Positions 7,108 to 60,529 of a stretch of DNA of 64,000 nucleotides are shown here, piece by piece. Source of the DNA: Thermoplasmatota archaeon (GTDB lineage: Archaea > Thermoplasmatota > Thermoplasmata > SG8-5 > JACRNV01); the NCBI GenBank assembly GCA_040753455.1, contig JBFMEL010000001.1, positions 5,810-69,809 of the forward strand, in the 5' to 3' direction. The position numbers and the translations under genes were made by a program. The notes below the pieces were generated by a model. The model was given only the letters and a program-made list of their open reading frames with translations. It did no database searches and was not told the DNA's origin. Position 1 is the first letter of the stretch. Each line of letters opens with the position of its first letter.

Positions 7108-8101
7108 CAGGGCACCGGTGCGCATCAGCTTCGGGGGCGGAGGCACAGACCTCGCCTCTTACTATGAGAAATACGAGGGGATGGTGGTCAGCGCAGCGAT
7201 CAGCAAGTACATCTACGCGATCCTAGAGCTGAGAGAGGACGACCGGATCCAGATCATCTCATCAGACCTGCAGTTGAACCAGACCGTGAGCGACTTCTAC
7301 CACCTGAGGTTCGGCGAAGGGCTGGACATCCCGGTGGCGGTGATCAAGCGCTTCGGGGTTCATCGGGGGATGAACATCTTCCTGGCATCGGAAGTGCCTC
7401 CGGGCACAGGGCTCGGATCCTCGGGCGCTGTCTGCGTCAGCATGGTGAACCTGTTCAACGAGCTGGAGCGCATGAAGATGGGGGAGCAGGAGATCGCTGA
7501 AACCGCTTATGCGATTGGTCACGACGACCTCGGGATGCCGATCGGCAAGCAGGACGAATATGCCTCGGCATTCGGGGGTGTGAACGCGATATACTTCTCC
7601 AAGGACGGGGTGCGGGTGGAACCCATGAAGATCACAGAGGAGGTGCGCAGGCGTCTCGAGGAGGACGTGCTCCTCTTCTTCACCGGGCGCACAAGGGATT
7701 CTTCGAAGATACTCACCTCCCAGGACAGCTCCGCCAGCAAGGGGGACAGCGCTGTAGTAGAGGGGCTGCACGAGATTAAAGCACTGGGGATGCAGATAAA
7801 GGAGAGTATCGAAGATGGGGATCTACAGAGGATGGGCGAGCTCCTTGACAGGTCCTGGGCGAGGAAGAGGCACCTTGTCAAAGGGATCAGCAACCCCAGG
7901 ATCGACGAGATATACGAGGTGGCGGCAGCGCACGGCGCTGTGGGCGGGAAGCTCACTGGCGCCGGGGGCGGTGGATATCTCATGCTCTACTGCCCGAAGA
8001 AGGACCAGCATGGTCTAAGGGCTGCACTTTCCAGGCTCGAGCTCAGGGAACTGGACTTCAAGTTCGACATGGAGGGGGCAGAGATCGTCACAGGAGGATG
8101 A
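7094..8101 (+). CDS. hddA: GHMP-family sugar kinase (D-glycero-D-manno-heptose 7-phosphate kinase-like, HddA)
   Basis: GHMP ATP-binding motif PPGTGLGSSGA. A GTG start at 7094 is preceded by AGGAGG. The ORF track start at 7019 would overlap the upstream gene. Confidence 0.75.
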   Translation: MTLISRAPVRISFGGGGTDLASYYEKYEGMVVSAAISKYIYAILELREDDRIQIISSDLQLNQTVSDFYHLRFGEGLDIPVAVIKRFGVHRGMNIFLASEVPPGTGLGSSGAVCVSMVNLFNELERMKMGEQEIAETAYAIGHDDLGMPIGKQDEYASAFGGVNAIYFSKDGVRVEPMKITEEVRRRLEEDVLLFFTGRTRDSSKILTSQDSSASKGDSAVVEGLHEIKALGMQIKESIEDGDLQRMGELLDRSWARKRHLVKGISNPRIDEIYEVAAAHGAVGGKLTGAGGGGYLMLYCPKKDQHGLRAALSRLELRELDFKFDMEGAEIVTGG

Positions 8102-11301: not shown

Positions 11302-12642
11302 ATGTCCCCCGATGTGAATCCCGCACTGCGCCTGCGGAGCATAGAGCTCAGCCCAGAGATGGACGGCAGGGAGGTGGTGATCGCAGGATGGGTTCAGGAC
11401 GTGCGAAACCTGGGCGGCATCTCCTTCATCCAGCTCAGGGACAGGGGCGGGGTGGTGCAGGTGACAGCACCGAGGAAGAAGGTGCCCATAGAGATCTTCA
11501 AGGCGCTCTCCGCCCTGCCGCGCGAGAGCGTCATCGCAATAAAAGGGGTGCTGAGGGCGAACAAAGAAGCCCGCGCAGGCTTCGAGGTCATCCCCTCCGC
11601 AATGGATGTGCTGAGCATTGCTGACGCTCCCCTTCCCATGGGGGTCATAGACAAAGTGGGCGTGGATCTCGATACAAGGCTGAACAACAGGTTCATGGAC
11701 CTCAGGCGCGAGCATGTCGCAGCCATCTTCAGAATAAGGGACTGCCTCCTTTCCTCGTGCAGGGAGTTCCTCTCAGAGGAAGGGTTCGTAGAGATCCATA
11801 CCCCTAAGATCGTGGGCGCGGGAGCAGAGGGCGGTGCCACCCTCTTCCCGATCTCATACTTCGGCAGGGAGGCGTACCTTGCCCAGAGCCCGCAACTCTA
11901 CAAGCAGAGCCTGATGGCATCAGGGTTCGAAAGAGTCTACGAGATCGCGCCCGCATACAGGGCAGAGAAGAGCGACACAGTGCGGCACCTCGCAGAGTTC
12001 CTTTCCCTGGACATGGAGATGGCGTTCATCAAGGGTCCTGAGGACATAATGAAGATGACCGAGCGCCTGACGGATCATGCGATGCGAGGGGTGGAGGGCA
12101 GATGCGCCAGAGAGCTGGCGCTTCTCAATGTGACACTGCCTGAGCAGCGCCCACCGTTTCCCAGGCTCTCATATGATGAGTGCATCTCCATGCTCCGCGC
12201 TGCGGGCAGGGATGTGCCTCCAGGGGTGGAGATAGACACAGAGAACGAAAAGCTGCTGGCAGAGCTCCTCAGGACTGAGTATGGTGCAAGGCACTTCTTC
12301 ATCACGGATTTCCCCACTGAGCTCAAGCACGGCACGTTCTACGCGATGAGGAGAGACGAAGACCCGAGGCTCACATGCTACTTCGATCTCGAGTTCGACG
12401 GCGAGGAGCTGGTCTCAGGGGGTCAGAGGGAGCACAGGTACGATGTGCTCGTTCGCCAGATACAAGAGGCGGGACTGGATCCCAGCGCCTTCGAGTTCTA
12501 CCTCAATGCGTTCAGATACGGGATGCCTCCCCATGGCGGCATAGGGATGGGGATCGAGCGGTTCCTGCACGTGCTCCTGCGTCTGCCGAACATCAGGGAG
12601 TGCGTGTTGTTCCCCAGGGACAGGACGCGGCTGGTGCCTTAG
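11302..12642 (+). CDS. aspS: Aspartyl-tRNA synthetase (archaeal class II, possibly non-discriminating)
   Basis: Class II motif 3 GMPPHGGIGMGIERF, motif 2 FRAE, and an N-terminal OB fold. Confidence 0.9.
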   Translation: MSPDVNPALRLRSIELSPEMDGREVVIAGWVQDVRNLGGISFIQLRDRGGVVQVTAPRKKVPIEIFKALSALPRESVIAIKGVLRANKEARAGFEVIPSAMDVLSIADAPLPMGVIDKVGVDLDTRLNNRFMDLRREHVAAIFRIRDCLLSSCREFLSEEGFVEIHTPKIVGAGAEGGATLFPISYFGREAYLAQSPQLYKQSLMASGFERVYEIAPAYRAEKSDTVRHLAEFLSLDMEMAFIKGPEDIMKMTERLTDHAMRGVEGRCARELALLNVTLPEQRPPFPRLSYDECISMLRAAGRDVPPGVEIDTENEKLLAELLRTEYGARHFFITDFPTELKHGTFYAMRRDEDPRLTCYFDLEFDGEELVSGGQREHRYDVLVRQIQEAGLDPSAFEFYLNAFRYGMPPHGGIGMGIERFLHVLLRLPNIRECVLFPRDRTRLVP

Positions 12643-23919: not shown

Positions 23920-24501
23920 GCAAGCGCATAGCCCATTGATGATAAAAATCTATCGAGATATGGAGATCTGCCCTCTGTGCATAGTATCTCGCATTCCATG
24001 CAACGACCTTTGAGATGTGCATCTCCACCTGCAGGATTCCGTGCCCGACCACTCGTCACCAGCGCATTCCATGCAACGACCTTTGAGAGCAGGTCAACGA
24101 TCCCACGGGCAGGTTTCAGGGCAACATCTTTTTATAATCAGAACCCCTCTTCACCACGCTAGGCTCGACCGGGGCGCTCGGCGTGCCCTTATACACCGAA
24201 ATCGTCGATAGCGGGGGTGACAGCTGAGGGCGGCGTAACCTGCCCTGCACGCGCCCTGTGCTCGACTATGAGACCCTGTCCTGCCGGGCGGGTGGCGGCT
24301 CTGCGGCGCAGCCGGAGGGCGGCGCCCTCTGCCCTGATCGTGGGGAACGGGTCAGGCCCTGACGGGAGCAGCCTAACCACGGATTACCTGCGCTGGCAGG
24401 GTTGCGGGGTCGAGAAGAGCACAGACATCCGCGCGCAGGAAAGGGCGACCACCTCAGCGGCCTAGCTCCCATCATATAATCAACACCAGGCCGCTGATCA
24501 A

Positions 24502-24960
24502 GACCACCACACAGCTACCCAACAGGACAGCTAACCCAGTGGTCGAATCCAGGGCGAGGAAACAATCTCCCATCATATTCTCGCCCTGTTCTCATCAACT
24601 TCCCAACGTTGATAGGACGTGAGGAGCATAAAAGCAAATAGAAAGCACCTCACGTCCGTATCCACGGCGAGGAAACAACCTCCAAGCGTATCCTCGCCGT
24701 GCTGCAAGCAGATAGCAACAACGATAGGACGTGAGGAGCATAAAAGCAAATAGAAAGCACCTCACGTCCGTATCCACGGCGAGGAAACAACCTCCAAGCG
24801 TATCCTCGCCGTGCTGCAAGCAGATAGCAACAACGATAGGACGTGAGGAGCATAAAAGCAAATAGAAAGCACCTCACGTCCGTGTCCACGGCGAGGAAAC
24901 AACCTCACATCATATACTCGCCGTGATAGACCGTGCTAGAATCAGATAGAAAGACCCTCA
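24502..24960. repeat. Modular hairpin-repeat locus 1: X1 element, Y hairpin, then three tandem 112-bp units (24611-24722, 24723-24834, 24835-~24946). Each unit holds an X2 and a Y hairpin.
   Basis: Units 1 and 2 are identical. X2 is ggacgtgagg-N23-cctcacgtcc. Y is (c)acggcgagga-aacaa...-(t)cctcgccgt(g). Confidence 0.7.
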
Positions 24961-27617: not shown

Positions 27618-27691
27618 GGGCCCGTGGGGTAGTCCGGACATCCTTTCGGCCTTCGGAGCCGATGACCCGAGTTCGAATCTCGGCGGGCCCG
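27618..27691 (+). tRNA. tRNA-Arg (anticodon TCG)
   Basis: Manual cloverleaf fold. Acceptor GGGCCCG/CGGGCCC. Anticodon stem TCGGC/GCCGA with loop CTTCGGA. T-arm CCGAG-TTCGAAT-CTCGG. Confidence 0.85.
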
Positions 27692-27729
27692 CTTACCCAC
27701 AACCCTTATAATCCACGCGCGCATACTAA

Positions 27730-27833
27730 TCCCGGCGGGCCCATGGTCTAGCGGTTACAGCTTGTGGTGTTGGCCAGGCAGCCGCAAATGACGGGTGTCT
27801 CACACACACCAGATCTCCGGTTCGAATCCGGAT
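27730..27833 (+). tRNA. tRNA-Val (anticodon CAC) with a ~31-nt intron at a non-canonical position in the D-loop/D-stem region
   Basis: Acceptor GGGCCCA/TGGGCCC. 5' D-stem and loop GTCT-AGCGGTTA (27739-27750). The insert is 27751-27781. Then TGAC-G-GGTGT-CTCACAC-ACACC-AGATC-TCCGG-TTCGAAT-CCGGA. The spliced product is 73 nt. Confidence 0.6.
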
Positions 27834-28215
27834 GGGCCCACATTTCTGTCCCGCAGAAAAAACGCAGCAGAAGAAATGTGGTAGGACGTGAGGAGCATAA
27901 AAGCAGATAGAAGCACCTCACGTCCGTGCCCAGGGCGAGGAAACACTCTCCTATCATATTCTCGCCCTGTTCGGAGCTCTAGGACAGACACAGCAAAAAC
28001 ACAGCAAAAGAAATGTGGTATAGACCACCTCACAGCTAACCAACAGGGCAGCTAACCAAGTGGTCGAACCCACGGCGAGGAAACAAACACACATCATATT
28101 CTCGCCGTGTTCTCAGCAAAAAAGAAACGCTGGTAGGACTACCGCACAACTAACCAATCGTGCAGTTAACCAAGTGGTCCGTACCCACGGCGAGGAAACA
28201 ATCTCTTCAGCCTAT
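27834..28215. repeat. Modular hairpin-repeat locus 2, immediately 3' of tRNA-Val: D hairpin, X2, Y, D-like, X1, Y, X1, Y
   Basis: D is cacatttctg-N-agaaatgtg. X2 is ggacgtgagg..cctcacgtcc. X1 is ggac(t/c)ac..cagctaacc..cagctaacc.agtggtcc. Y is ggcgagga-aaca..-ctcgcc. Confidence 0.65.
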
Positions 28216-28343
28216 CGCCCATCGAAATCACCCGTGCTATTCATTGACGATACCCCGCGCGACAAGGTGATTAAGCACCAGTGCCATATCACTCCACGGT
28301 GATATAAACGACGTATAGAAGGTTCAAGAATACCGCCACCCTC

Positions 28344-28554: not shown

Positions 28555-30195
28555 TCACACCACGGGCACCAGCGAAAGTCTTCCTAGGGCGGAGGGGTCC
28601 TCGATGATGAGGGCGTGCAGCCCGGTGTACGGCTTCTCCCCGTACAGGAATGTCTGATCGCCCAGGCGCTCGACCTTGACATGGATGCGCGCGGTGGACA
28701 TGATGAGGCGCTCGGTGTCGGGTTCCGAGGTGAAGCCAATGAATATAGCGCCCACCTTCCTCACCGCGTAGATGAGCGGTATGAGTGAGCCTTCCACGCG
28801 CTCATCGTACATCTTGCTGAGAGTGTCTAAGGAAAGGAGGATGACGAAAGGCTGTTGGGAGCCTGATAGGGCATATTCGATCCCTTCCCAGCGAAAGTCT
28901 GTCTCCACATTCGTCCCTTCCAGCAGGATGGTGTTCTTTAGGATGTCTTTGCTGAGACAGGTGGTAGGCTCGAAGACCCGCACGCGCTCGTAGAAGCGCT
29001 CCTCCCCGATCTGGCTGCTCAGCATCTGATAGGCTGTATGCCCTGTGCCATGCCTGGGGGGCAAGATGCAGACCCCTCTCTCCTGGGAGACGAAGTTAGC
29101 CACCATCGTATAACAGAGATTGCTCACGATGCTCGGTGAGACGTTATCTGCGAACTCGAAGACACCGACCGAGCCGTGCGCGAGTCCCCCGATGAGAAAA
29201 TCTATGTCTGCAGAGCCTGTGGACACGATATCTCCGCTGAGATCCGGAATAGGCTTGAAGTGCCTGGGCTTTCCTTCGCCGGAGCCTGGATCACCGATGG
29301 AATACCTCGGGCACTCGAAGACGCTCATTCGGCCGTCCAAAAGGGTGTAGCACACGGTCGGCTCGGTGATCGGACAGCCGCGGAGCTTCTCGATCGTTAA
29401 CACCCTCAACCGCCTTCCCTTGTGATACTGGGAGTGAAGGCGTATCACGCCGTCACCCAGATAGTCGAGCTGCGACTTCTCCGCCTCTTCGAGGATGTAC
29501 ACGAGGTTGGCTCCCGAGTTCTCGACCAGGTCCCTCTGAATAGTGTTCACGAGGCGCACCTGCGCCACTCCGTACTTCTCACTGAGGGAGTTGATGCTGT
29601 CGAACACGATCAGAGATTTCTTTGGCAACGCGCGCTCAACCACGTCATAGGCCCACTCGATCTCTGGGAGGTCGGACGACAGGTCAAGTGTCAACACCCC
29701 GTTCACCAGATCCCCGCGGTCCCCCTCTGCGGTCACGTCCGCCTCGCCCTCTATGATCTGGCCTTCGAGCTTCCTCAGTCCTGATCGATCCACTGCCACT
29801 GGCATGGTCTCGGTCCCCCTCAGCACCTTCAGGAGCGACTTCGCCTCCTGTTTGACAGCCTCGGGGAGACGCGCCTGGCATGTGCCCTTCCTCCCTCCGG
29901 GATGCAGGGCGTTCAGAAAACCACGTCCCCCGGCAATCAGGTCGTTCCTGCGCACCTTCTTCGCCAGCCATGGAAACTGGTTGTATAGACTCCTGTCAGT
30001 CACCCTCCCTGAGATGTAGTGCGTCGCCTCGATCCCCGAGAGCTCCTCGATGAGCTGCAGCGCGAACGTGGTCTTACCAGTGCCCGCATCCCCCTTTACT
30101 AGCAGGGAGTGCCCGCCAGGGCTCTCGAAGAAATCGAGTATCTGCTGAGGGATCTGTCCCTGGGCTGTTCCTCGCTTAGAACGCATTATACTCAA
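28555..30195 (-). CDS. KaiC/RecA-superfamily ATPase with two RecA-like domains. The second domain lacks a Walker A.
   Basis: Domain 1 Walker A GDAGTGKTTFALQ. Domain 2 has IGGLAHGSVGVFEFADN in the P-loop position. Confidence 0.8.
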   Translation of the reverse strand: MSIMRSKRGTAQGQIPQQILDFFESPGGHSLLVKGDAGTGKTTFALQLIEELSGIEATHYISGRVTDRSLYNQFPWLAKKVRRNDLIAGGRGFLNALHPGGRKGTCQARLPEAVKQEAKSLLKVLRGTETMPVAVDRSGLRKLEGQIIEGEADVTAEGDRGDLVNGVLTLDLSSDLPEIEWAYDVVERALPKKSLIVFDSINSLSEKYGVAQVRLVNTIQRDLVENSGANLVYILEEAEKSQLDYLGDGVIRLHSQYHKGRRLRVLTIEKLRGCPITEPTVCYTLLDGRMSVFECPRYSIGDPGSGEGKPRHFKPIPDLSGDIVSTGSADIDFLIGGLAHGSVGVFEFADNVSPSIVSNLCYTMVANFVSQERGVCILPPRHGTGHTAYQMLSSQIGEERFYERVRVFEPTTCLSKDILKNTILLEGTNVETDFRWEGIEYALSGSQQPFVILLSLDTLSKMYDERVEGSLIPLIYAVRKVGAIFIGFTSEPDTERLIMSTARIHVKVERLGDQTFLYGEKPYTGLHALIIEDPSALGRLSLVPVV

Positions 30196-31832: not shown

Positions 31833-32240
31833 CTATATGTCGAACAGCACCTCCGCCACCCCTCTCTCCACGTCAACGATTAGCATGTGGTACGTGACAG
31901 CCTTGACCTCCATCCTCAGTGTGTGTTTCTCGGGGTTCATGGGCTCACCCCAGGCGCGGGCAAGCAAACGCTCGCCATCCCTGCGCACCTCGAACCTGGA
32001 GAAGAGGAAGGCGTGCGCGTCCACCAGGTAGATGATCTCTGACAGAAAGCTGTAGAGCATTTCGTATGGTTCGCCAGGCTCCACGCTGATCTCCTTTATC
32101 TCTCTGCCCTCGACGGTCTCAGGGTCGCAGATGATGCTCATCATGCCCAGGGCAGCGCTCTCGAAGATCTCCTCCATGGTGCTGCCATGTGCCCTCACGC
32201 CAACATCTGCGGTGTGCTCTATGATCTCGAAGCGGGGCAT
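31833..32240 (-). CDS. Archease (RtcB ligase activator)
   Basis: MPRFEIIEHTADVGVRAHG is the archease N-terminal signature. 136 aa from the internal Met. Confidence 0.8.
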   Translation of the reverse strand: MPRFEIIEHTADVGVRAHGSTMEEIFESAALGMMSIICDPETVEGREIKEISVEPGEPYEMLYSFLSEIIYLVDAHAFLFSRFEVRRDGERLLARAWGEPMNPEKHTLRMEVKAVTYHMLIVDVERGVAEVLFDI

Positions 32241-32359
32241 CCTGCAGGCTGATACACCATGTGCTGATAACAGTTGCGCAGCGCGCCGCGATGACCCCCG
32301 AGCAAAACCTCGCGCGGATATTCCTGCTCTGGCTCGGATGATGGCGCTGGTCTCACTGC

Positions 32360-34195
32360 TCAGAAGAAGACAGGCGCCTTTCTCAGCCAGTCCACGTCCG
32401 AATTGTAGAGGGCGCGCATGTCCTCCAAGCCAAAGAGCACCATCGCCAGGCGCTCGAGCCCCTGACCCCATGCCATCACCGGGTGTTTGATTCCGAATGG
32501 GGCAAGCACCTCAGGGCGGAACATCCCTGCACCGCCCAGCTCCATCCACCTCCCCGCGTAGAAGGTCTCGACCTCCATGCTGGGCTCTGTGTACGGGAAG
32601 TAGCTGGGACGTATGCGGATCTGCTCGAACCCCATGCGCCTGTAGTATTCTGTGAGTATCCCCTTCAGCATCGCGAGGCTGGCATCCTCCTCCATCGCTA
32701 TGCCCTCCACCATCTGGAACTCCGCCAGGTGCCTTGCATCTATAGATTCTCTGCGGAAGACCCTTCCTATGGTGAATATCCTCACCGGGGGATCGGGATG
32801 CTCAGAAAGGTAGAGGATGCTGTTTACGGTGGTATGGGTCCGGAGGATCGCCTTCGTGGCATCCTCCTCCCTCCAGGCGTATCCCCAGCCCAGCGAGCCG
32901 TCTATGCCTTCTTCGTGGGCTTTCCTCACCTTCTTCACATACCCTTGCATGGGCAGGGGGATGCGGCTCGGTTGCGAAAGGTAGAAGGTGTCCTGCATCT
33001 CCCTCACTGGGTGATCCTGGGGGGTGAAGAGCGCGTCCATGTTCCAGAATGTGGACTGCACATAGCCGAACTCCACCTCGGTGAAGCCCATGGCCATGAA
33101 CGTCTCCCTGATCTTGGCGATGAACCTGCACAGCGGATGGCGCTTCCCGCCCTCGGCTGCTGGAGCATACGTGTCAGGGGCATAGGGTCTGAAACTGAGA
33201 TTTTTCCATGCGCCGGATACTAAGTGCTGCGGGGTGAGCTGGCTCACCTCTGAAACGATCCTCAGTCCTTCCTTTATCAGCGGCTCTGCCGCAGGGGCGA
33301 GGCTGGCCCAGCGCATCACCTCTTCCCTCGTTCTCAGCAGCCCCTGGCGCGACGTCAGCTGCCTCAGCACCACCTCATCGATCTCGCGCTCGTGCAGCTC
33401 CCCCATCTTTCCGAGCAGGGCAATCGTTTCCTCATCTTTCCCCTTGCGCTCGAGCGCCTCCTTCCCCTCCTCAGTGAGCACGAGGATCGTCTCTCCACCC
33501 ACCTTTTCAATCCTTGCCCATCCCTTGCGCTTCAGCCAGCCAACAGCGATGCTCACGTCGTCCTTGGAGAGCCTTGCGGCGGCGCCCAGCTCATCCATCC
33601 TTGCCTTTCCGCGCATCTTGCGCAGCGCCTTGAGCGCCTTTCTCTCTGGGAGGTCGGCTCCTGCCACATGCTTCCTGGCAAGAGAGTAGTAGCGCTCGAG
33701 GGTCTCTGAGATGAGCACGAGCCCTTTCGCCTGCAGCCAGGAGACAGCGTTCATCACCTCCACCTGCGATAGAAGCCCCACATCCCTCTTCTCCTCAGGG
33801 AGCACGGCGAGCTTCGACAGCGCGCTGCTGATCGCAGGCACTGCATCCCCAGTGAGATGCGCGAACCCCTTGCGCTGCAGCGGCACCTCGATACCGACCC
33901 AGGAGGGCAGGCAGCGGCTCGCCAGCACCCGCGTAACCTCCCCTCTGTAGTCCTCCTTTTCCTCGGCGATTATGGTGAGAAGGGCGCGCATGAGCTCGTC
34001 CACCTCGCGCTCCTTGGGCACCCTGCCCGCAGAGCTTTCTAGATCGAGCAGTGCCTGGCGCATCGTTGAGAGATGGGCCGCAACATCCTCCGGGGCAGAG
34101 CTGCGGATGATCTCCCATGGCGTGCCTGTGCCTCCGAGCTTCGAGAGCGCCAGGAGCACGCGCCGTTCGGCGCTGCTCAACTCCTCGACCTTCAT
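32360..34195 (-). CDS. pheS: Phenylalanyl-tRNA synthetase alpha subunit (archaeal/eukaryal type) with an extended N-terminal wHTH-repeat region
   Basis: Class II core FRPEVLAPFGI..WGQGLERLAMV and motif 2 region. Start at the Met MKVEEL. Confidence 0.85.
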   Translation of the reverse strand: MKVEELSSAERRVLLALSKLGGTGTPWEIIRSSAPEDVAAHLSTMRQALLDLESSAGRVPKEREVDELMRALLTIIAEEKEDYRGEVTRVLASRCLPSWVGIEVPLQRKGFAHLTGDAVPAISSALSKLAVLPEEKRDVGLLSQVEVMNAVSWLQAKGLVLISETLERYYSLARKHVAGADLPERKALKALRKMRGKARMDELGAAARLSKDDVSIAVGWLKRKGWARIEKVGGETILVLTEEGKEALERKGKDEETIALLGKMGELHEREIDEVVLRQLTSRQGLLRTREEVMRWASLAPAAEPLIKEGLRIVSEVSQLTPQHLVSGAWKNLSFRPYAPDTYAPAAEGGKRHPLCRFIAKIRETFMAMGFTEVEFGYVQSTFWNMDALFTPQDHPVREMQDTFYLSQPSRIPLPMQGYVKKVRKAHEEGIDGSLGWGYAWREEDATKAILRTHTTVNSILYLSEHPDPPVRIFTIGRVFRRESIDARHLAEFQMVEGIAMEEDASLAMLKGILTEYYRRMGFEQIRIRPSYFPYTEPSMEVETFYAGRWMELGGAGMFRPEVLAPFGIKHPVMAWGQGLERLAMVLFGLEDMRALYNSDVDWLRKAPVFF

Positions 34196-35749: not shown

Positions 35750-35857
35750 CCCGACTTAGCTCAGACTGGCTGGAGCGGCTGACTGTAGTAGGTCATCGGC
35801 AACGCCGATTCAGCTGCTGAAATCAGCAGGTCCCCGGTTCAAATCCGGGAGTCGGGA
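35750..35857 (+). tRNA. tRNA-Tyr (anticodon GTA) with a ~33-nt intron at the canonical 37/38 position
   Basis: Acceptor CCCGACT/AGTCGGG. D-arm GCTC..GAGC. Anticodon stem GCTGA/TCAGC with loop CTGTAG[intron]A. 5-nt variable loop. T-arm CCCGG-TTCAAAT-CCGGG. Confidence 0.65.
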
Positions 35858-35880: not shown

Positions 35881-36320
35881 CTCCTGGATAGGACTACCGC
35901 ACAGCTAACCAACTGGACAGCTAACCCAGTGGTCCGTTTCCGGGAGACGGGATCACATTTCTGTTTGCATCAATCAAGCAGAGAAAGAAATGTGATAGAC
36001 CGCAAGGAGCATAAAAGCAAACAAAAATCACCTTGCGGTCGTGTCTACGGCGAGGAAACAATCTCACATCGTATCCTCGCCGTGCTGCAAGCAGATAGAA
36101 ACACCGATAGGACTACCGCACAATTACCCAATATAACAGTTAACCAAGTGGTCCGTGTCCACGGCGAGGAAACAATCTCACATCGTATCCTCGCCGTGCT
36201 CTCATCATCCTCCCAGCAATGATAGGACGTGAGGAGCATAAAAGCAAGTAGAAAGCACCTCACGTCCGTGTCCAGGGCGAGGAAACAATCTCCCATCATA
36301 TACTCGCCGTGATAGAAGGA
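35881..36320. repeat. Modular hairpin-repeat locus 3, 3' of tRNA-Tyr: X1, D, X2 (variant stem), Y, X1, Y, X2, Y
   Basis: Same element families as loci 1 and 2. The X2 copy at ~36002-36040 has the stem gaccgcaagg/ccttgcggtc with the loop conserved. Confidence 0.65.
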
Positions 36321-50518: not shown

Positions 50519-50779
50519 ATGATCACCGTATTAGAGGACTGGTGCAAGGGCTGCGCGATCTGCATCAAGCGCTGCCCGCGCGACGCGCTGGAGCTCTCCA
50601 CCAAGCTGAATAAGAGGGGCGTGTATCCCCCCAAGCTCAAGGAGGTGAACGACTGCAATTACTGCCGCCTCTGCGAGCTGCTCTGTCCTGATTTCGCGCT
50701 CAGTGTGACCCCTGACGAGGGGTACGTGCCCAAGGATTTCAAGAAGCTCATAATCGGAGGGATTGCAGGTGAGGTATAA
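50519..50779 (+). CDS. korD: 2-oxoacid:ferredoxin oxidoreductase delta subunit (2x[4Fe-4S] ferredoxin)
   Basis: CKGCAICIKRCP and CNYCRLCELLCP. Confidence 0.75.
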   Translation: MITVLEDWCKGCAICIKRCPRDALELSTKLNKRGVYPPKLKEVNDCNYCRLCELLCPDFALSVTPDEGYVPKDFKKLIIGGIAGEV

Positions 50780-50804
50780 GCGAGATCCTGAGAGGATCAG
50801 GAGG

Positions 50805-51953
50805 GTGTTGGGACCCAAGGTCCAGTTTATACAGGGTGATATGGCAATAACGCACGGCGCACTCCTCGCAGGCTGCTCCTTCTTCGCAGGATATCCGATC
50901 ACCCCTGCTTCTGAGGTCGCGGAAACAGCTGCACGTCTGTTCCCGAGGGCGGGCGGGATGTTCATACAGATGGAGGACGAGATCGCCAGCATCGGGGCGG
51001 TGATCGGCGCTGCATGGGGTGGCGCAAAGGCTATGACAGCCACATCTGGACCTGGATTCTCGCTGATGATGGAGAACTATGGGTACGCGGTGATGACCGA
51101 AACCCCATGCGTGATAGCGAACGTGCAGCGCACCGGTCCATCCACGGGGCAGCCGACGCTGGGCGCGCAGGGGGACATGATGCAGGTGAGATGGGGCTCG
51201 CACGGGGACATGGAAGCCATAGCACTGGCACCGAGCACCGTGCAGGAATCGCTGGACATGACGATCGAATCGTTCAACCTCTCTGAGAAGTACAGGCATC
51301 CAGTATGCCTGATGACCGATGGCGAGATCGGCCATCTGAGGGAAAAGGTGGTGATCCCAGGAGAGGAGGAGATGACCGTTGTTGAGAGGGTGACTGCCAC
51401 GATCGAGAAGGAGAAGTTCCTGCCCTTCACAGGATCGCAGACGAGGGACAGCAAGGTGCCCGACTTCCCCACCTTCGGCACAGGATACAGGACATATGTG
51501 ACTGGCTTGACGCACAACAAGAGGGGCTTTCCAGCCACGGACAAGCAGAAGGATCATGAGGAGCTGATCACGAGGATCGTGTCAAAGATCGCAGACGACA
51601 GGGAGGCGCTGACCTCTGTTGAGAGGATGCAACTGGACGATGCAGAGATTGCCTTCGTGACATATGGAGCAAGCGCTAGACCTGCCGAGACCGCGGTGGC
51701 GATGGGGAGAAAGAACAGGATCAGGGTCGGGATGCTGCGGCTCAAGGTTGTGTGGCCCTTCCCCAGGCACGTGATAGAGGCGCTGTCCAGGCAGGTGCAC
51801 AGGATCATCGTCGCGGAGATGAACTTAGGGCAGATCATGCACACTGTGAGGGAGTTCGCGGTGGACGACTGCGATGTTGTCTTGGCATCCAAGGTAGGCG
51901 GCGAGATGCACCTGCCGCACGAACTCTATGAATATCTGGAGGTGAAGGGATGA
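50805..51953 (+). CDS. korA: 2-oxoacid (2-oxoglutarate/pyruvate):ferredoxin oxidoreductase alpha subunit
   Basis: GDMAITHGALLAG..FAGYPITPASE is the OFOR alpha N-terminus. GTG/TTG start after AGGAGG. Confidence 0.85.
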   Translation: MLGPKVQFIQGDMAITHGALLAGCSFFAGYPITPASEVAETAARLFPRAGGMFIQMEDEIASIGAVIGAAWGGAKAMTATSGPGFSLMMENYGYAVMTETPCVIANVQRTGPSTGQPTLGAQGDMMQVRWGSHGDMEAIALAPSTVQESLDMTIESFNLSEKYRHPVCLMTDGEIGHLREKVVIPGEEEMTVVERVTATIEKEKFLPFTGSQTRDSKVPDFPTFGTGYRTYVTGLTHNKRGFPATDKQKDHEELITRIVSKIADDREALTSVERMQLDDAEIAFVTYGASARPAETAVAMGRKNRIRVGMLRLKVVWPFPRHVIEALSRQVHRIIVAEMNLGQIMHTVREFAVDDCDVVLASKVGGEMHLPHELYEYLEVKG

Positions 51954-52825
51954 TTACTGCTGAGCAACTGCGCGAGAAATATCTGCGGGACGGCATGCTG
52001 CCCACGATCTTCTGTGACGGCTGCGGTCATGGTTCCGCTATCGACTACACGCTGCATGCGATCGAGGAGCTCGGTCTGGACATGGACAGCGTGGCTTTAG
52101 CCTCAGGGATAGGCTGCTCCTCCCGCATCCCTGGCTACATCAATGTAGATGGGCTGCACACCACCCATGGCAGGGCGATAGCGTTCGCCACAGGGATCAA
52201 GGCTGCGAACCCTGATCTCACCGTGATCGTATTCACAGGGGACGGTGACTGCGCAGGGATAGGGGGGAATTACTTCATACACGCTGCCAGGAGGAACATA
52301 GACATCACCGTGATCCTGCTCAACAACTTCATCTATGGGATGACTGGAGGACAGCTCGCGCCCACCGCGCCGTTCAACAGCATCTCCACCACCTCTCCCT
52401 ACGGCAACATCGAGCAGGCGTTCGACCTCTGCGAGCTCGCGAAGGCGTTGGGTGCGGCGTACGTGGCGCGCTGGCCCATCCATTACCCCTACCAGCCGAT
52501 CAAGTCCATAAAGGAAGGGATTCAGAAGAGAGGGTTCGCGCTGATAGAGCTGATGTCCCCCTGCCCCACGGCATACGGCAGGAGGAACAAGTTAGGCGAG
52601 ATCGATGCACTGTGGAACTGGTACGAGGAGAACGTGATCCTCATCGAGGACTACGAGCGCGTGATGAGCTACGGCACCGAGGAGGAGAAGGTGCAGGTGA
52701 AGGGGAAGATGCAGATCGGGGTGTTTCAGAACACGGACAAGCCAGGGTTCTTCGAGGAGCACGAGAAGCTGGTGCGGCGCCTGATGGAGAAGGACGATGC
52801 CAAGCGCAAGGGGGGCTCAGTTTGA
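51950..52825 (+). CDS. korB: 2-oxoacid:ferredoxin oxidoreductase beta subunit (TPP-binding)
   Basis: FCDGCGHG cluster-binding motif and TPP motif GDGD. ATGA overlap with korA. Confidence 0.85.
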   Translation: MITAEQLREKYLRDGMLPTIFCDGCGHGSAIDYTLHAIEELGLDMDSVALASGIGCSSRIPGYINVDGLHTTHGRAIAFATGIKAANPDLTVIVFTGDGDCAGIGGNYFIHAARRNIDITVILLNNFIYGMTGGQLAPTAPFNSISTTSPYGNIEQAFDLCELAKALGAAYVARWPIHYPYQPIKSIKEGIQKRGFALIELMSPCPTAYGRRNKLGEIDALWNWYEENVILIEDYERVMSYGTEEEKVQVKGKMQIGVFQNTDKPGFFEEHEKLVRRLMEKDDAKRKGGSV

Positions 52826-52874
52826 CAGGGAGCAAAGGTCTGTGTCTCGGGTGCTGCACGCAGGGGGCGATGAA

Positions 52875-53414
52875 ATGAAGAAAGAGATAAGGATCGCGGG
52901 CTTCGGGGGTCAGGGCGTGGTGCTGGCAGGTGTCATCCTCGGCAGGGCTGCATGCGTGTATTCTGAGTACAACGCTGTGCAGAGCCAGTCCTATGGCCCA
53001 GAGGCAAGGGGTGGTGCGGCGAGATCCGAGGTCATCATATCCGATGAAAAGATCGGCTATCCCAGACCCACCAGTGTGGATCTGTTCGCTGCCATGGCGC
53101 AGGAGGCGTTCGACACCTATGTGAAGGACGTGAGAGAGGATACGATCATCATCATAGACCCAGACCTCGTGCCCCGTCATGATATCGGGCGCCCGCTGTA
53201 CAAAGTGAGGGCGCAGAAGATCGCTGAGGAGCTGGGGAATAAGGTGGTGACAAATATCGCAATGGTCGGCGGGATCACAGGGATCTTCACACTCTTGAGC
53301 CCGGAGGCTGTGAAGCAGGCGGTGATAGACTCCGTGCCCGCGCGCTTCAAGGAACTGAACGTCAAGGCGTTCGAGAAAGGCTTAGAGGCAGGTAGAGATG
53401 CCAGACCCGAGTGA
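52875..53414 (+). CDS. korG: 2-oxoacid:ferredoxin oxidoreductase gamma subunit
   Basis: MKKEIRIAGFGGQGVVLAG is the canonical gamma-subunit start. Confidence 0.8.
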   Translation: MKKEIRIAGFGGQGVVLAGVILGRAACVYSEYNAVQSQSYGPEARGGAARSEVIISDEKIGYPRPTSVDLFAAMAQEAFDTYVKDVREDTIIIIDPDLVPRHDIGRPLYKVRAQKIAEELGNKVVTNIAMVGGITGIFTLLSPEAVKQAVIDSVPARFKELNVKAFEKGLEAGRDARPE

Positions 53415-56400
53415 GATCATTCACAGGTACTACGAGGACGTCCCCCTTGCAGACGATTACCTCGTCCTTGTACCAGAGATCATGATGCTGGACGACGAGG
53501 TCTCAGAGGGATATGCCCCAGCCCTGAGGGCGGAGATGGCGATCCGCAGGATCAAGAGAACGATGGAGGGGGACGTGCTGGTCGTGGGTGCGGGCATCGC
53601 GGGCATGCAGGCTGCGCTCGACATCGCGGACAAGGGCTACAGGGTGGTGCTGGTGGAGAAATCCTCCACCATCGGGGGAAATATGGTCAAGCTGGACAAG
53701 ACCTTCCCCACCAACGACTGCTCGATCTGCACCTCCGCGCCGAAGATGGTGGAAGTATCAAGGCACCCGAACATCAAGCTGCTGACCTATGCCGAGCTCG
53801 CAAGGTTAGAGGGCAGTGCCGGAGACTTCACGGCTCATGTATACAGAAAGAGCAGGTACGTGGATCCCGAGAAGTGCACAGGCTGCGACGACTGCGCTGT
53901 GGTGTGCCCCGTGGAGATCGTCAATCCCTTCGATGAGCGCTTGTCCAAGCGCAAGGCGATATACATCGAGTTCCCGCAGGCTGTGCCCATCGTGTACACC
54001 ATCGATTACGAGCACTGCGTGGGCTGCGGCGCATGCGAGCGCGCGTGCGAGCCTGGCGCGATCTCCTTTCTACAGAAATCTGAAGATATAGAGGTAAGGG
54101 TGGGCAGCGTCATCGTCGCCACGGGCTACGAGCTCTTCGAGCCCCTGGAGATGCGCAGAGAGTATGGATATGGAAAATATTCAAATGTAATTACAGCGAT
54201 GCAGTTCGAGCGCCTCTTATCCTCCTTCGGACCCACTGAGGGAAAGGTCAGACGCCCGTCGGACGGTGCCAAGCCCAGGTCTATCGCATGGATCCAGTGC
54301 GTTGGGTCGAGGAGCAAGCAGCTCGGGTTCCCGTACTGCTCCAGGGTCTGCTGCATGTACGCGACCAAGGAAGCCTCGATCACTAAGGAGGCAGAGCCAG
54401 ATACAGATATCACGATATTCTACATGGACCTCCGCGCCTATGGGAAGGACTTCCAGCAGTATTACGAGGATGCCAAGAAACTGGGCGTGAACTATGTGCG
54501 TGCTCGCCCCTCCTCCATATACCAGAACGAGGACAAGAGCATCACGATCAGGTACATGGACACCCACACCAGGGAGGTGAAGGAAAAAACTGTGGACCTG
54601 CTGGTGCTCTCCACAGCGATCATGCCGTCGAGGGAGAACAAGCGCCTTGCCAGCGTTCTGGGGATAGAGGTGGACGAGAGCGGTTTCTTCAGGGCAAGAT
54701 CCACAGTCACTGACCCTATCGCCTCCACGCGCGATGGCGTCTACCTTGCAGGCTGCATCCAGGGTCCGAAGGACATCCCGGACAGCGTGGCGATGGGCAG
54801 CGGTGCAGCCGCGAGAGCCATGGTGCCGATCATTGGAAGGGCGAAGACCGCGCCGCCACCCCCGCCGCCGGAGAGGGACGTGAGCTCAGAGCCTCCTAAG
54901 ATAGGGGTATTTGTCTGCCACTGCGGCAAGAACATCGCCAACTACGTGGATGTGGAGGCTGTGACCAGGTACGCGCAGTCCCTGCCTAACGTGGTGTACG
55001 CCACGCACGAGATGTTCGTCTGCTCCGAGGATATCCAGAAGAAGATCAAGGAGCAGATCAAGGAGGAGGGGCTGAACAGGGTCATTGTGGCGGCATGCTC
55101 CCCGCGCACCCATGGTCCCCTGTTCCAGGATACGATGGTCGCAGCAGGGCTGAACAAGTACCTCTTCGAGATGGCGAACATCCGCAACCAGTGCTCGTGG
55201 GTGCACTCTCACGAGCCCGAGAGGGCGACACAGAAATCCAAGGGGTTGGTGGCGATGGCAGTGACCAGGGCATCGCTGCTCGAGCCACTAACGGAGAGCG
55301 ATTTCACGGTGATTCCAAGGACGCTGGTGATCGGTGGAGGGCTGTCCGGGATGAGGGCAGCGATCGCGCTGTCAGAGATGGGGATCGAATCGTTCATCGT
55401 CGAGCGGGAAGAGGAGCTGGGTGGCATCCTCAAACACCTTCATTCCCTATTCCCCGCAGAGACCAAAGCCTCGGATATCATAGAGCCGCTCATCACCAGG
55501 GTGAAGAACGATCCACGCATCACCGTGTACACTGGGGCGGAGCTGCTCAGCGTCGAGGGTTTCATCGGCAACTTCAAGGCTAAGCTCAACACGCACGAGG
55601 GCGAGAAGGAGATAGAGTTCGGCACTGCGATCATCGCCACAGGGTTCAGGGAGATTGACCTCAAGGGGAGATACGCTCATGGCACGCATCCCGGGATCGT
55701 CACACAGACAGAGCTCGAGAGGATGCTGAAGGAGGGCACGGTGCCCCCACTAAAGCACGTGGTGATCATCAACTGCGCAGGTGCGATGGACGACGAGCGC
55801 CCGTACTGCTGCCGCATAGGCTGCGGCGTCTCGATAAAGAACGCGAAACTGCTCAAGGATATCAATCCCAACATGGAAATAACCATCCTCTACCGCGACA
55901 TCAGAGTGTTCGGGAAGGACGAGGAGGAATACTACGGGCGCGTGATAGAAGACAAGAGGGTGAAGATCATACGGTACCTGAAGGAAGAACAGCCAGCAGT
56001 ATCCGTGAGCGAGAAGGGTGATTTAGGCGTCAGGGTGAGGGATGCTGTGTACGGTGATGAGTTCGAGCTGCCCGCGGACCTGGTGGTGCTCACTGCTCAG
56101 ACAGAGGGAGGTGCTGATGTCGAGCGGCTTAAGAAGATGCTGAAGGTGCCCACTGACGCAGGCGGCTTCTTCACCGAGGCACATGCAAAGATACGCCCCC
56201 TGGATTTCGCTTCAGATGGTGTGTATGTGTGCGGCAGTGCCCACTATCCCAAGAACCTCGCGGACACGATCGCGCAGGCTGAGGGTGCTGCATCGCGCGC
56301 TGCGATACCGATACTGCGGGGGATGGTCAGGGGAGAGGGCATAGTATCCTCCATAGACCCGGACAGATGCTCGGGCTGCGGTCTCTGCGTCGGCGTATGC

Positions 56401-56562
56401 CCTTACGGCGCCATCTCCCTGGAGAGGGGTGTGGGGGTGGTGAACGTCGCGCTCTGCAAGGGCTGCGGCGCCTGTGCAGCCATCTGCCCATCGGGCAGCG
56501 CCAGGCAGATGGGATACAGGGACAACCAGATCTTAGCGATGTTAGGGGCTGCGATGACGTAG
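53398..56562 (+). CDS. hdrA: Giant (1054 aa) tandem-duplicated heterodisulfide reductase subunit A-like flavoprotein
   Basis: Two successive FAD-dependent HdrA modules (VLVVGAGIAGMQAALD and TLVIGGGLSGMRAA). Each has inserted ferredoxin CxxCxxCxxxCP motifs. An internal HdrA N-terminal Cys cluster (VFVCHCGKNIA) is present. Confidence 0.8.
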   Translation: MPDPSEIIHRYYEDVPLADDYLVLVPEIMMLDDEVSEGYAPALRAEMAIRRIKRTMEGDVLVVGAGIAGMQAALDIADKGYRVVLVEKSSTIGGNMVKLDKTFPTNDCSICTSAPKMVEVSRHPNIKLLTYAELARLEGSAGDFTAHVYRKSRYVDPEKCTGCDDCAVVCPVEIVNPFDERLSKRKAIYIEFPQAVPIVYTIDYEHCVGCGACERACEPGAISFLQKSEDIEVRVGSVIVATGYELFEPLEMRREYGYGKYSNVITAMQFERLLSSFGPTEGKVRRPSDGAKPRSIAWIQCVGSRSKQLGFPYCSRVCCMYATKEASITKEAEPDTDITIFYMDLRAYGKDFQQYYEDAKKLGVNYVRARPSSIYQNEDKSITIRYMDTHTREVKEKTVDLLVLSTAIMPSRENKRLASVLGIEVDESGFFRARSTVTDPIASTRDGVYLAGCIQGPKDIPDSVAMGSGAAARAMVPIIGRAKTAPPPPPPERDVSSEPPKIGVFVCHCGKNIANYVDVEAVTRYAQSLPNVVYATHEMFVCSEDIQKKIKEQIKEEGLNRVIVAACSPRTHGPLFQDTMVAAGLNKYLFEMANIRNQCSWVHSHEPERATQKSKGLVAMAVTRASLLEPLTESDFTVIPRTLVIGGGLSGMRAAIALSEMGIESFIVEREEELGGILKHLHSLFPAETKASDIIEPLITRVKNDPRITVYTGAELLSVEGFIGNFKAKLNTHEGEKEIEFGTAIIATGFREIDLKGRYAHGTHPGIVTQTELERMLKEGTVPPLKHVVIINCAGAMDDERPYCCRIGCGVSIKNAKLLKDINPNMEITILYRDIRVFGKDEEEYYGRVIEDKRVKIIRYLKEEQPAVSVSEKGDLGVRVRDAVYGDEFELPADLVVLTAQTEGGADVERLKKMLKVPTDAGGFFTEAHAKIRPLDFASDGVYVCGSAHYPKNLADTIAQAEGAASRAAIPILRGMVRGEGIVSSIDPDRCSGCGLCVGVCPYGAISLERGVGVVNVALCKGCGACAAICPSGSARQMGYRDNQILAMLGAAMT

Positions 56563-56582
56563 GGAGAATGACGATAATGTGA

Positions 56583-57029
56583 TTGATGGAGGTTGCATGG
56601 ATGGACGAGAAAAACGGTTTCGAGCCGAAGATCATCGGGTTTCTCTGCAACTGGTGCAGCTATGCCGGTGCAGACCTGGCAGGGGTGAGCAGGATCCAGT
56701 ACCCGCCCAACGTGCGGGTAATAAGGGTCATGTGCTCCAGCAGGGTGGACCCTATCTTTGTGCTCAGGGCATTGACGGATGGAGCAGACGGCGTATTGAT
56801 AGCAGGCTGTCATCCTGGTGATTGCCATTACATCGAGGGGAACTACCGCACGAGGCGGAGGGTTGCTGCACTGAAAAGGATCCTCGAGAAGTATGGGCTG
56901 AGCGACAGGCTCTTCCTTGAATGGGTGAGCGCAAGCGAGGGAAAGAAGTTCGCGGAGGTGGTGACAAAGGTCACCAACACCATCAAGGAGCTTGGACCAA
57001 ACCCGCACAGAAAGATATGGGAGATCTAG
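56583..57029 (+). CDS. mvhD: MvhD/FlpD-like [2Fe-2S] subunit
   Basis: [17 protein letters not shown]...[10 protein letters not shown] is the MvhD signature. Confidence 0.8.
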   Translation: MMEVAWMDEKNGFEPKIIGFLCNWCSYAGADLAGVSRIQYPPNVRVIRVMCSSRVDPIFVLRALTDGADGVLIAGCHPGDCHYIEGNYRTRRRVAALKRILEKYGLSDRLFLEWVSASEGKKFAEVVTKVTNTIKELGPNPHRKIWEI

Positions 57030-57039
57030 GGGTGAAAGG

Positions 57040-58062
57040 ATGCCTACGTATAAAATAGAGGAGAGGGAAATCCAGAGGATCCTCGAACATCTGCTGGTCA
57101 AGGGTATCGTCGAAGGGGTCATGCTCCAGGTCAGGGGGGAGCATGGTGTCTTTACAGCCCTCGTCGCAGATCCTGCACGTATCGCAAGTGCTGTGCCGCT
57201 GGCTCCGCTGTTCTCCGGCAACACCGCCGTCTACCTTCAGAACAATGGAAGGAGGAAGATCGCAGTTGTGGTGAAGCCGTGCGAAGCCAGGGCGATCAAC
57301 GAGCTGAAGAAATTAAATCAGATAAACCTGGACGATCTCATCGTGATATGCAGCGACTGCCTGGGGACGGTGGATCCCAAGGGGGTCACGGAGCCGCTGA
57401 CCGATGCAAAAAAGAAGGAGCTCATGAGGAGCGCGTGCAGGGTCTGCGAGCACTTCACGCCCCCAGAGGTGGATCTCAGCATCCTGACCATTGGGACTGG
57501 GGATGGGTGCATCGTTGCCACTGAGAGGGCAGAGCTCCTCGAAGGCTTGAACCTGAGGTGTGAGGAGATCCCAGAGGCACGGGAGCACGAGATCCAAAAG
57601 ATCCGAAAGGAGCGGCTCAAGCACAAGGAAGAGATGACCAAGGAGATGATAAAAAAGTTATCTGCTCCAGGTTCGCTTGCAGAGGCATTGAGCCACTGCA
57701 TACGCTGCGACAACTGCAGGGAGGTGTGCCCACTCTGCTACTGCAAGGAATGCTACTTCGAAACCCCTTTGGGGGATCTAAGAACAGACGGGATGCTGCA
57801 TCAGGCAGCGATAAAAGGGATACTGAGAGTTCCCCCGGACATCCTTTTCTATCATCTCACCAGGCAGATCCATGTCGCCGCGGGATGCGTGGGATGCGGA
57901 GCATGCGAAGAAGCATGCCCGAGAGAGATCCCCCTGCTGTCGATATGGAAGGCGGTGGCACCTGATGTCCAGGCGCTGTTCGACTATGTGGCAGGGATGG
58001 AGAAGGACGTGCCGCTGCCCATGGTGCAGTTCAAAGAGGAAGAGCTCGAAGAGGTGAAGTGA
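57040..58062 (+). CDS. FrhB/FdhB-family (coenzyme F420-reducing hydrogenase beta subunit-like) iron-sulfur flavoprotein
   Basis: FrhB-type N-terminal domain plus C-terminal CIRCDNCREVCP and CVGCGACEEACP. Start at MPTYKI. Confidence 0.7.
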   Translation: MPTYKIEEREIQRILEHLLVKGIVEGVMLQVRGEHGVFTALVADPARIASAVPLAPLFSGNTAVYLQNNGRRKIAVVVKPCEARAINELKKLNQINLDDLIVICSDCLGTVDPKGVTEPLTDAKKKELMRSACRVCEHFTPPEVDLSILTIGTGDGCIVATERAELLEGLNLRCEEIPEAREHEIQKIRKERLKHKEEMTKEMIKKLSAPGSLAEALSHCIRCDNCREVCPLCYCKECYFETPLGDLRTDGMLHQAAIKGILRVPPDILFYHLTRQIHVAAGCVGCGACEEACPREIPLLSIWKAVAPDVQALFDYVAGMEKDVPLPMVQFKEEELEEVK

Positions 58063-60047: not shown

Positions 60048-60461
60048 ATGACGAACGATCATGAGCCCCTGCTCGTGGCATTCTGCTGCAACTGGTGCTC
60101 GTACGCAGGCGCTGATTTAGCCGGCACATCCAGAACCCAGTATCCGCCCAATGTCAGGATAATAAGGGTGATGTGCTCAGGGATGGTGCACCCCAACCTT
60201 GTGATCGACACGCTCACCAAGGGCGCTGATGGCGTCCTGATGTGCGGCTGTCATCCCGGTGATTGCCACTACATCGAGGGGAATCTAAGGGCTGAGAAGC
60301 GCGCGGAGGCGATACGTCTCATGCTGGAGGACATGGGGTTTGAACCTGAACGATACAGGTTGGAATGGATCTCTGCCTCGGAAGGGCAGCGGTTCGCCGA
60401 GGTCGTGAAAGAGATGGTCGAACAATTGAAGGCGCTAGGTCCGAACCCATACAGGGCGTAG
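60048..60461 (+). CDS. mvhD: MvhD/FlpD-like subunit (second copy)
   Basis: [17 protein letters not shown]...[10 protein letters not shown]. Confidence 0.85.
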
Positions 60462-60529
60462 GTGATCATACGAGCAATGAGGCGGATGTATCAGGCGGCG
60501 AGGTCGCGACGACCAACGATAAACCAAGG

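Follow-up and report, generated by a model that had tools for sequence, protein, structure and literature searches.

A bulge-helix-bulge intron predicted in the D-loop of tRNA-Val(CAC), conserved in structure across uncultured Thermoplasmatota

Archaeal tRNA introns at non-canonical positions whose motif is the bulge-helix-bulge (BHB) are well described, with 20/21 being a listed insertion position (PMC4090602), and D-loop BHB introns at 20/21 and 20b/21 have been documented and cleaved in vitro (PMC4090602, PMC5829648, PMC3241643). Here, we describe a tRNA-Val(CAC) gene with a 31-nucleotide (nt) insert in its D-loop, located on contig JBFMEL010000001.1 of a Thermoplasmatota metagenome-assembled genome (MAG; GenBank assembly GCA_040753455.1). 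The window is the whole 64,000-nt stretch that was analyzed (positions 5,810 to 69,809 of the contig, forward strand), and all coordinates are given within it. One described system that resembles this locus is the Aeropyrum pernix pre-tRNA-Thr2(UGU), in which a canonical BHB intron in the D-loop is removed by the splicing endonuclease EndA alone and is cleaved in vitro by the A. pernix enzyme (PMC3241643, Hirata et al. 2011). It differs from our case in that A. pernix is a crenarchaeon whose (alpha-beta)2 EndA has a Crenarchaea-specific loop, in that another isoacceptor is concerned, and in that its removal is experimentally shown, whereas that of the tRNA-Val intron is predicted. The Methanopyrus kandleri pre-tRNA-Glu(UUC) is the euryarchaeal counterpart, with an intron at 20b/21, essentially the point used here (20a/21), that has a weak closure on its 3' side and is classed as relaxed HBh' (PMC5829648, Kaneta et al. 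2018). Unlike tRNA-Val, the M. kandleri tRNA-Glu has an added canonical 37/38 intron, and its (alpha-beta)2 EndA is without the specific loop; in tRNA-Val, for its part, the two 3-nt bulges are in register and the intron helix h' is strong.

Thermoproteales and Thaumarchaeota have non-canonical BHB introns (Sugahara 2008; Fujishima 2010; reviews PMC4090602 and PMC4033280) that belong to the same class of element and likewise require BHB-aware finders (PMC8450103), but they are numerous within a genome, often have a relaxed motif and form transposed intron families, whereas such introns are rare in the phylum of our host. Canonical introns at 37/38, such as the one in a tRNA-Tyr gene of the window, share the enzymes and the BHB logic of four exon nucleotides pairing with four intron nucleotides. 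In these, however, the exon strand comes from anticodon-loop positions 32-35 and not from D-loop G15-G19, and the exon-side helix is the 5-base-pair (bp) anticodon stem and not a short D-stem. Reviews (including PMC4090602) state that euryarchaea with an alpha4 or alpha'2 EndA carry introns essentially only at 37/38, and Table S7 of the tRNAscan-SE 2.0 work counts 25 non-canonical introns over 144 euryarchaeal genomes, with 6 for the 3 Methanomassiliicoccales and a single one for the 5 Thermoplasmatales (PMC8450103). Beyond these clade-level counts, our literature searches returned no description of a tRNA-Val D-loop intron in Thermoplasmatota or Methanomassiliicoccales.

We observe that positions 27737-27840 of the forward strand, on which all elements of this locus lie, very probably constitute a functional tRNA-Val(CAC) gene, with a 31-nt archaeal BHB intron that splits the D-loop between U20a and A21 instead of occupying the 37/38 site. 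The gene begins 44 bases downstream of tRNA-Arg(TCG) (27618-27692), and a TATA-like box, CCTTATAA (27704-27711), read 25 nt upstream of its 5' end, would drive its transcription. Exon 1 (27737-27756, tRNA positions 1-20a) comprises the acceptor 5' strand GGGCCCA, U8, G9, the D-stem 5' strand GUC(U) and the D-loop part AGCGGUU, and is followed by the intron ACAGCTTGTGGTGTTGGCCAGGCAGCCGCAA (27757-27787). Exon 2 (27788-27840) comprises A21, the D-stem 3' strand (U)GAC, G26, the anticodon arm, the variable loop AGAUC (AGATC in the DNA), the T arm, the acceptor 3' strand and the discriminator A73; the terminal CCA is not encoded. The acceptor stem pairs GGGCCCA (27737-43) with TGGGCCC (27833-39), leaving the discriminator A at 27840, the D-stem pairs GUC (27746-48) with GAC (27790-92), and the T arm reads TCCGG-TTCGAAT-CCGGA (27816-32). 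As the earlier note on this DNA had stated, the anticodon arm GGTGT-CTCACAC-ACACC (27794-27810) is uninterrupted, with the valine anticodon CAC at 27801-27803 both in the sequence and in the ARAGORN cloverleaf of the spliced form. Joining the exons gives a clean 73-nt tRNA-Val(CAC) cloverleaf in ARAGORN, and this product keeps U8, A14, G18G19, U33, the T-loop UUCGAAU and A73.

With respect to the splice junction, we scored every deletion of 24-38 nt within 27744-27800, without any BHB assumption, against a tRNA-Val hidden Markov model (HMM) built on 27 distinct intron-less archaeal tRNA-Val(CAC) genes among the matches listed. ARAGORN had been considered as the judge of these deletion variants and was rejected in favor of HMM scoring, since it called Val(CAC) for nearly any deletion. 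The deletion of 27757-27787 scores highest (41.7 bits, against 27.9 bits for the unspliced sequence), tied with 27758-27788 because both junction bases are A, so that either choice yields the same product. The junction chosen in this way coincides with the cuts predicted from the BHB (after 27756 and after 27787) and with the insert site of the orthologues described below. The earlier proposal of a tRNA-Val(CAC) with a 31-nt insert in its D-region is thus borne out by the cloverleaf, by the HMM scores and by 15 orthologous junctions that share the insert site. Its coordinates had to be corrected, since 27730-27833 for the gene and 27751-27781 for the insert are all 7 too low and become 27737-27840 and 27758-27788 when shifted by that amount. 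Taken literally, the deletion of 27751-27781 removes the conserved G18G19 and scores 31.9 bits, compared with 41.7 for the best.

The first 25 nt of the spliced product, GGGCCCATGGTCTAGCGGTTATGAC, consist of exon 1 and the first 5 nt of exon 2. Intron-less tRNA-Val(CAC) genes, among them those at loci L057, L070 (a Thermoplasmata MAG) and L076, start with the identical 25 nt, while the intron-less genes L045 and L049 differ from them at position 7 only. Related Thermoplasmata MAGs carry an intron-less allele of this gene. Neither ARAGORN at its default settings nor the Rfam tRNA model calls the tRNA-Val gene, tRNA-Arg(TCG) being the sole tRNA called in the window. The Rfam tRNA model gives a partial match only (27780-27840, 20.4 bits, with a gathering score of 29), and an Rfam search of the locus and the repeats downstream of it at a permissive E value returned chance-level matches only.

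In a BHB, the cut falls after the second nucleotide of each bulge. By the archaeal rule, a stretch of four exon nucleotides that stops 2 nt short of the 5' splice site pairs with an equally long stretch of the intron that stops 2 nt short of the 3' splice site (PMC6379350, PMC3239211). In the window, the D-loop nucleotides GCGG (G15 C16 G18 G19; 27751-27754) pair at all four positions with intronic CCGC (27782-27785) as the central helix H. This helix is flanked by the 5' bulge UU/A (27755-27757) and the 3' bulge AA/A (27786-27788), where the slash marks the predicted cuts after 27756 and after 27787, and the motif thus has the 3-4-3 form, with two 3-nt bulges around a 4-bp helix and the splice sites within the bulges. 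The remainder of the intron forms the helix h', in which CAGCUUG (27758-27764) makes six of seven pairs with CAGGCAG (27775-27781), with one A.A mismatch, below a 10-nt apical loop, UGGUGUUGGC (27765-27774). When the intron was shuffled 200,000 times, 0.05% of the shuffles reached four of four pairs in H together with at least six of seven in h' in the required register.

The apical loop contains GGTGT (27766-27770), a copy of the anticodon-stem 5' strand, which the earlier note had proposed as a strand of the BHB helix. The copy is present, but we do not consider it part of the splicing motif, because it lies in the apical loop and is missing from the introns of the five closest orthologues (L060, L127, L120, L122 and L125), in which the anticodon stem is the same; it contributes only to a competing misfold, the global minimum free energy (MFE) structure, and to a spurious ARAGORN model, both of which are discussed below. 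In the precursor, the D-loop GCGG would pair with the CCGC that lies towards the intron's 3' end, giving the 4-bp central helix, with the 5' bulge closed on its outer side by the 7-bp intron hairpin and the 3' bulge by A14:U22 and the D-stem. EndA would then cut after the second nucleotide of each bulge, i.e., after 27756 and after 27787, and an RtcB-type ligase would join the exons, with the predicted product being a 73-nt tRNA with the D-loop AGCGGUUA, to which CCA would be added later.

The orthologues of this gene were retrieved in two ways. A highly degenerate pattern of the 3' half, scanned over genome contigs, gave intron-less orthologues and, among the matches listed, one insert-bearing orthologue, L060, from a groundwater MAG labelled 'Methanobacteriota archaeon'. 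This gene is also 104 nt long and its exons are 1 base off those of the window, with a 31-nt insert that is unrelated in sequence and identical in architecture (1 + 7 + 10 + 7 + 4 + 2 nt); the TATA-like octamer lies exactly 25 nt upstream of tRNA-Val in both. Furthermore, metagenomes were scanned for GGTCTAGNGGYT and ATGAC...CTCACAC separated by 15-45 nt, which returned 16 further loci. All of them are tRNA-Val(CAC) genes, and their inserts, 19-44 nt long, sit at this very site. Helix H is fully paired in 15 of the 18 genes (window included), either as GCGG with CCGC or, in the variants CCGT and TCGC, through G.U pairs; L120 retains three of four pairs, and L130, L132 and L133 are weaker. The bulges follow the patterns UU/N (with one CU/N) on the 5' side and AN/A on the 3' side, and helix h' abuts both sides, with a sequence that is wholly different in each lineage.

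A gap-free alignment of 15 distinct orthologous D-arm/intron junctions was used to count pairs, and we observe that 93.3% of the alignment cells are paired (91.7% of the helix-H cells), compared with 72.8% in shuffles, with none of 500 shuffles reaching the observed value. Sliding the partners by 1-3 columns leaves 21-55% of the cells paired, and all five h' pairs counted are changed on both sides. Among the six closest genes, which share the anticodon arm of the window, the exons are identical at 69-73 of 73 positions (95-100%) and the variable part of the intron shows 37-57% identity, with compensatory changes in the acceptor stem (C5:G68 to U:A and C6:G67 to U:A). Of 17 orthologous segments made up of D-arm plus intron, 9 have the 3-4-3 BHB as their MFE structure, and in 5 more it comes within ~1 kcal/mol of the MFE. 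In these orthologues, it is the structure of the intron, and not its sequence, that is conserved. Another group of intron-bearing loci, which is AT-rich and includes L121 and L124, encodes an aspartyl-tRNA synthetase (AspRS) that is 86% identical to Thermoplasmatota-labelled proteins and ~55% identical to the AspRS of the window. Because this group is also Thermoplasmatota by its AspRS label, the D-loop intron spans well-separated lineages of the phylum.

Several observations weigh against the reading as a spliced tRNA-Val, some of them from folding. The earlier note had suggested folding the pre-tRNA in search of a BHB; the 3-4-3 geometry fits the junctions, but it is not the MFE structure of the window sequence. 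The global MFE of the 104-nt precursor is -45.2 kcal/mol, with the intron segment GUGGUGUU paired to the anticodon-stem 3' strand. Enforcing the cloverleaf body gives -44.6 kcal/mol, with H growing to 6 bp (U55:G81 and U56:A80), an ACA bulge left and the 5' bulge displaced, and the strict BHB combined with the cloverleaf reaches -38.7 kcal/mol and is not the predicted fold of the window's own sequence. When the D-arm plus intron is folded in isolation, the MFE undercuts the BHB by 3.3 kcal/mol. In addition, the 3' bulge is weakly closed on its exon side, either by A14:U22 and U13.G23 or by a 2x4 internal loop beside the 3-bp D-stem. The two pairs of the former, which make up helix h, compete with the 3-bp D-stem, and ViennaRNA favors the internal loop, with a cost of 2.8 kcal/mol for forcing A14:U22. 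Because of this weak closure, the motif may be read as a relaxed HBh' as well as an hBHBh' with a minimal h. The strict hBHBh' motif is the substrate class of the narrow-specificity alpha4 and alpha'2 EndA enzymes.

Points outside of the fold also count on that side. The A. fulgidus alpha'2 EndA 'hardly cleaved' a D-loop BHB intron (PMC3241643), and cluster II Euryarchaeota are reported to encode alpha'2 EndA exclusively (PMC5829648). Pfam scans of 56 open reading frames (ORFs) of the 64-kb window found no EndA domain, and no RtcB domain either. Furthermore, the retrieval pattern fixed the flanking exon sequence, which biases the sample of orthologues towards this D-loop sequence and leaves the exon-side pairs unable to covary, and the excision of the intron is a step that we infer.

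With these points in mind, other explanations of the insert need to be weighed. An incorrect gene model is one of them, and here the behavior of the predictors matters, as the earlier note had named a different model from a tRNA predictor as the result that would refute it. ARAGORN in intron mode does return such a model, a tRNA-Ala(GGC) at 27737-27841 with a 30-nt anticodon-loop intron (27776-27805) and an anticodon stem made of TGGTG (27765-69) and CACCA (27807-11), and the global MFE of the precursor also pairs that part of the intron with the anticodon-stem 3' strand. ARAGORN arrives at it because the introns it allows can only sit in the anticodon loop, and there are independent reasons to dismiss the model. 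Alanine tRNAs universally carry the identity pair G3:U70, whereas this model has G3:C70; position 37, where a purine is expected, would be C; and the D-stem would be left with one Watson-Crick pair, one G.U and one mismatch. By inspection, its junctions show no BHB, with UUGG facing UCAC unpaired, and the closest orthologues lack GGTGT/TGGTG and the GGC 'anticodon' in their introns, whereas every gene retrieved has the CAC arm of valine. We thus regard tRNA-Ala(GGC) as extremely improbable. That the standard tRNA finders make no call and that the strict BHB is not the MFE structure in the window could also be taken as signs of a pseudogene, i.e., of a formerly intact tRNA-Val(CAC) that lost its function when 31 nt were inserted at random. 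Decay of this kind is very unlikely given that the exons keep 95-100% identity between lineages in which the similarity of the introns has dropped to a near-random level, and it is also at odds with the compensatory substitutions in the acceptor stem, with the BHB kept by covariation over the 15 distinct junctions and with the TATA-like box conserved at a fixed spacing.

The insert might instead be transcribed and retained in the mature tRNA, as an enlarged D-loop or an extra arm, and its stable hairpin would agree with that. G18 and G19 must contact psi55 and C56 of the T-loop to form the tRNA elbow, and a retained insert would sequester both. Its length (19-44 nt) and its sequence are free except for the 3-4-3 BHB, which points to a processing signal and not to a functional arm, and related Thermoplasmata have intron-less alleles with an identical mature sequence, so that retention is, in our judgment, highly unlikely. 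As general background, group I introns occur in bacterial and in some archaeal tRNA genes, which is what could be said for self-splicing, by a group I or a group II intron, or for the insertion of a mobile element. At 31 nt, however, the insert is far below the size of any ribozyme intron, whose core alone takes several hundred nucleotides, and it has no Rfam family match, no terminal repeats and no ORF, leaving this explanation close to impossible. The reading that we prefer remains that of a tRNA-Val(CAC) gene with a D-loop BHB intron.

With respect to the host, the Archaea_SRP RNA at 24157-24467 marks the window as archaeal. An NCBI protein labelled 'Candidatus Thermoplasmatota archaeon' matches the AspRS of the window (11302-12642) at 100% identity, followed by relatives at 67-68% and then by Thermoplasmata-labelled proteins at ~60%. 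An origin in Thermoproteales, which the GC content had brought to mind, is rejected on the basis of this AspRS label. The earlier note's expectation of an archaeal host and of BHB-type processing holds, but its implied setting, a lineage that is classically rich in such introns, does not, the host being a Thermoplasmatota MAG. Archease is a cofactor of the tRNA-splicing ligase RtcB, and an archease gene (31833-32471, reverse strand; PF01951, E = 8.7e-40) lies 4 kb from tRNA-Val, overlapping the end of the PheRS-alpha ORF. In addition, a tRNA-Tyr(GTA) gene at 35750-35857 (forward strand) has a 33-nt anticodon-loop intron; this gene is found by ARAGORN in intron mode only and missed by default ARAGORN and by the Rfam gathering search, and a simple 37/38 register would leave a U.U mismatch in its central helix. 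Since the window holds both this anticodon-loop intron and an archease gene, tRNA splicing is needed in the host genome anyway.

Multi-intron tRNAs are considered atypical for euryarchaea. In the AT-rich Thermoplasmatota lineage (L121, L124, L126, L128, L131 and L134), tRNA-Val(CAC) has, besides its D-loop intron, another one in the T-loop that measures ~53 nt in L124, L131 and L134, ~71 nt in L128 and ~175 nt in L121, while the close relative L135 is without the T-loop intron. Five of these loci also hold a paralogous tRNA (L121 at ~101, L124 at ~6873 on the reverse strand, L126, L131 at ~7316, and L134), in which the D-arm is the same and introns interrupt both the D-loop (40 nt) and the T-loop. 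The first 13 nt of this D-loop intron match the intron of the L124 Val(CAC) gene, and the anticodon loop of the paralogue, UCGACAC, corresponds to the anticodon GAC (valine), but with C and not U at position 33. On a further metagenome contig (L123, Ga0209541_10259789), a 150-nt tRNA-Val(CAC) is apparently interrupted three times, namely in the D-loop (by 23 nt), directly 3' of the anticodon loop and in the T-loop. Finally, MAGs of Thermococci (L003), Desulfurococcales (L035) and Thermoprotei (L051) contain a tRNA-Val(CAC) 3' half in which the anticodon-stem 5' strand is absent directly upstream of CTCACAC, an arrangement that points to an intron, or else a split, right ahead of position 32.

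Directly 3' of the SRP RNA, tRNA-Val and tRNA-Tyr genes, we observe tandem arrays of 3-4 copies of a structured unit of ~112 nt, at ~24490-24925, 27854-28235 and ~35890-36320 (all on the forward strand), and L060 holds orthologous copies that likewise come after its tRNA-Val (~7160-7385, reverse strand). Tandem Repeats Finder reports a period of 112 with 97% match at 24611-24925. The first hairpin of the unit has two alternatives, GGACGTGAGG...CCTCACGTCC or GGACTACC...CAGCTAACCAA...GTGGTCC, and the second is formed by CACGGCGAGGAAAC...GTATCCTCGCCGTG, with compensatory changes between copies. The unit has no Rfam match. It could represent small RNAs that are co-transcribed, modules for processing or termination, or a repeat element with a preference for the 3' side of RNA genes, and it may be more novel than the tRNA-Val intron. 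Elsewhere in the window, a forward-strand cluster of HdrA-, MvhD (FlpD)-, FrhB- and NuoE/NuoF-like genes (53398-63644) adjoins subunits of a 2-oxoacid:ferredoxin oxidoreductase (50763-53414), and its gene content suggests a flavin-based electron-bifurcating module. An ORF at 28555-30195 (reverse strand) has GvpD P-loop, KaiC-like and GvpD basic-region domains, with no other gas-vesicle genes among the ORFs of the window scanned for Pfam domains.

The tRNA-Val gene is genuine and conserved, and its insert is very probably a D-loop BHB intron of an already described kind that involves no new mechanism. Such introns are uncommon in the phylum Thermoplasmatota, to which this locus adds a case supported by covariation. 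Both tRNA-Val and tRNA-Tyr are invisible to default ARAGORN and at the Rfam gathering threshold, and MAG annotation with those tools would report tRNA-Val(CAC) as missing and therefore understate tRNA completeness. Furthermore, intron-bearing and intron-less alleles of one tRNA coexist among Thermoplasmata-related lineages. A further reading, which we put forward tentatively and hold to be rather doubtful, is that the 20a/21 intron of tRNA-Val is either old and vertically inherited or repeatedly gained, that it is common to several uncultured Thermoplasmatota lineages, some of them with a second T-loop intron of 53-175 nt, and that these lineages have an EndA of broadened positional specificity. 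The last part follows from the assumption that Thermoplasmatota have an alpha'2 enzyme, since the alpha'2 EndA of A. fulgidus hardly cleaves D-loop BHB introns. If true, the Thermoplasmatota EndA would be an exception to the co-evolution model in which endonuclease architecture predicts intron position. The tRNA-Val intron thus provides a concrete substrate for asking whether alpha'2-type endonucleases are confined to the anticodon loop, and it sharpens the question of endonuclease specificity in the intron-bearing Thermoplasmatota.

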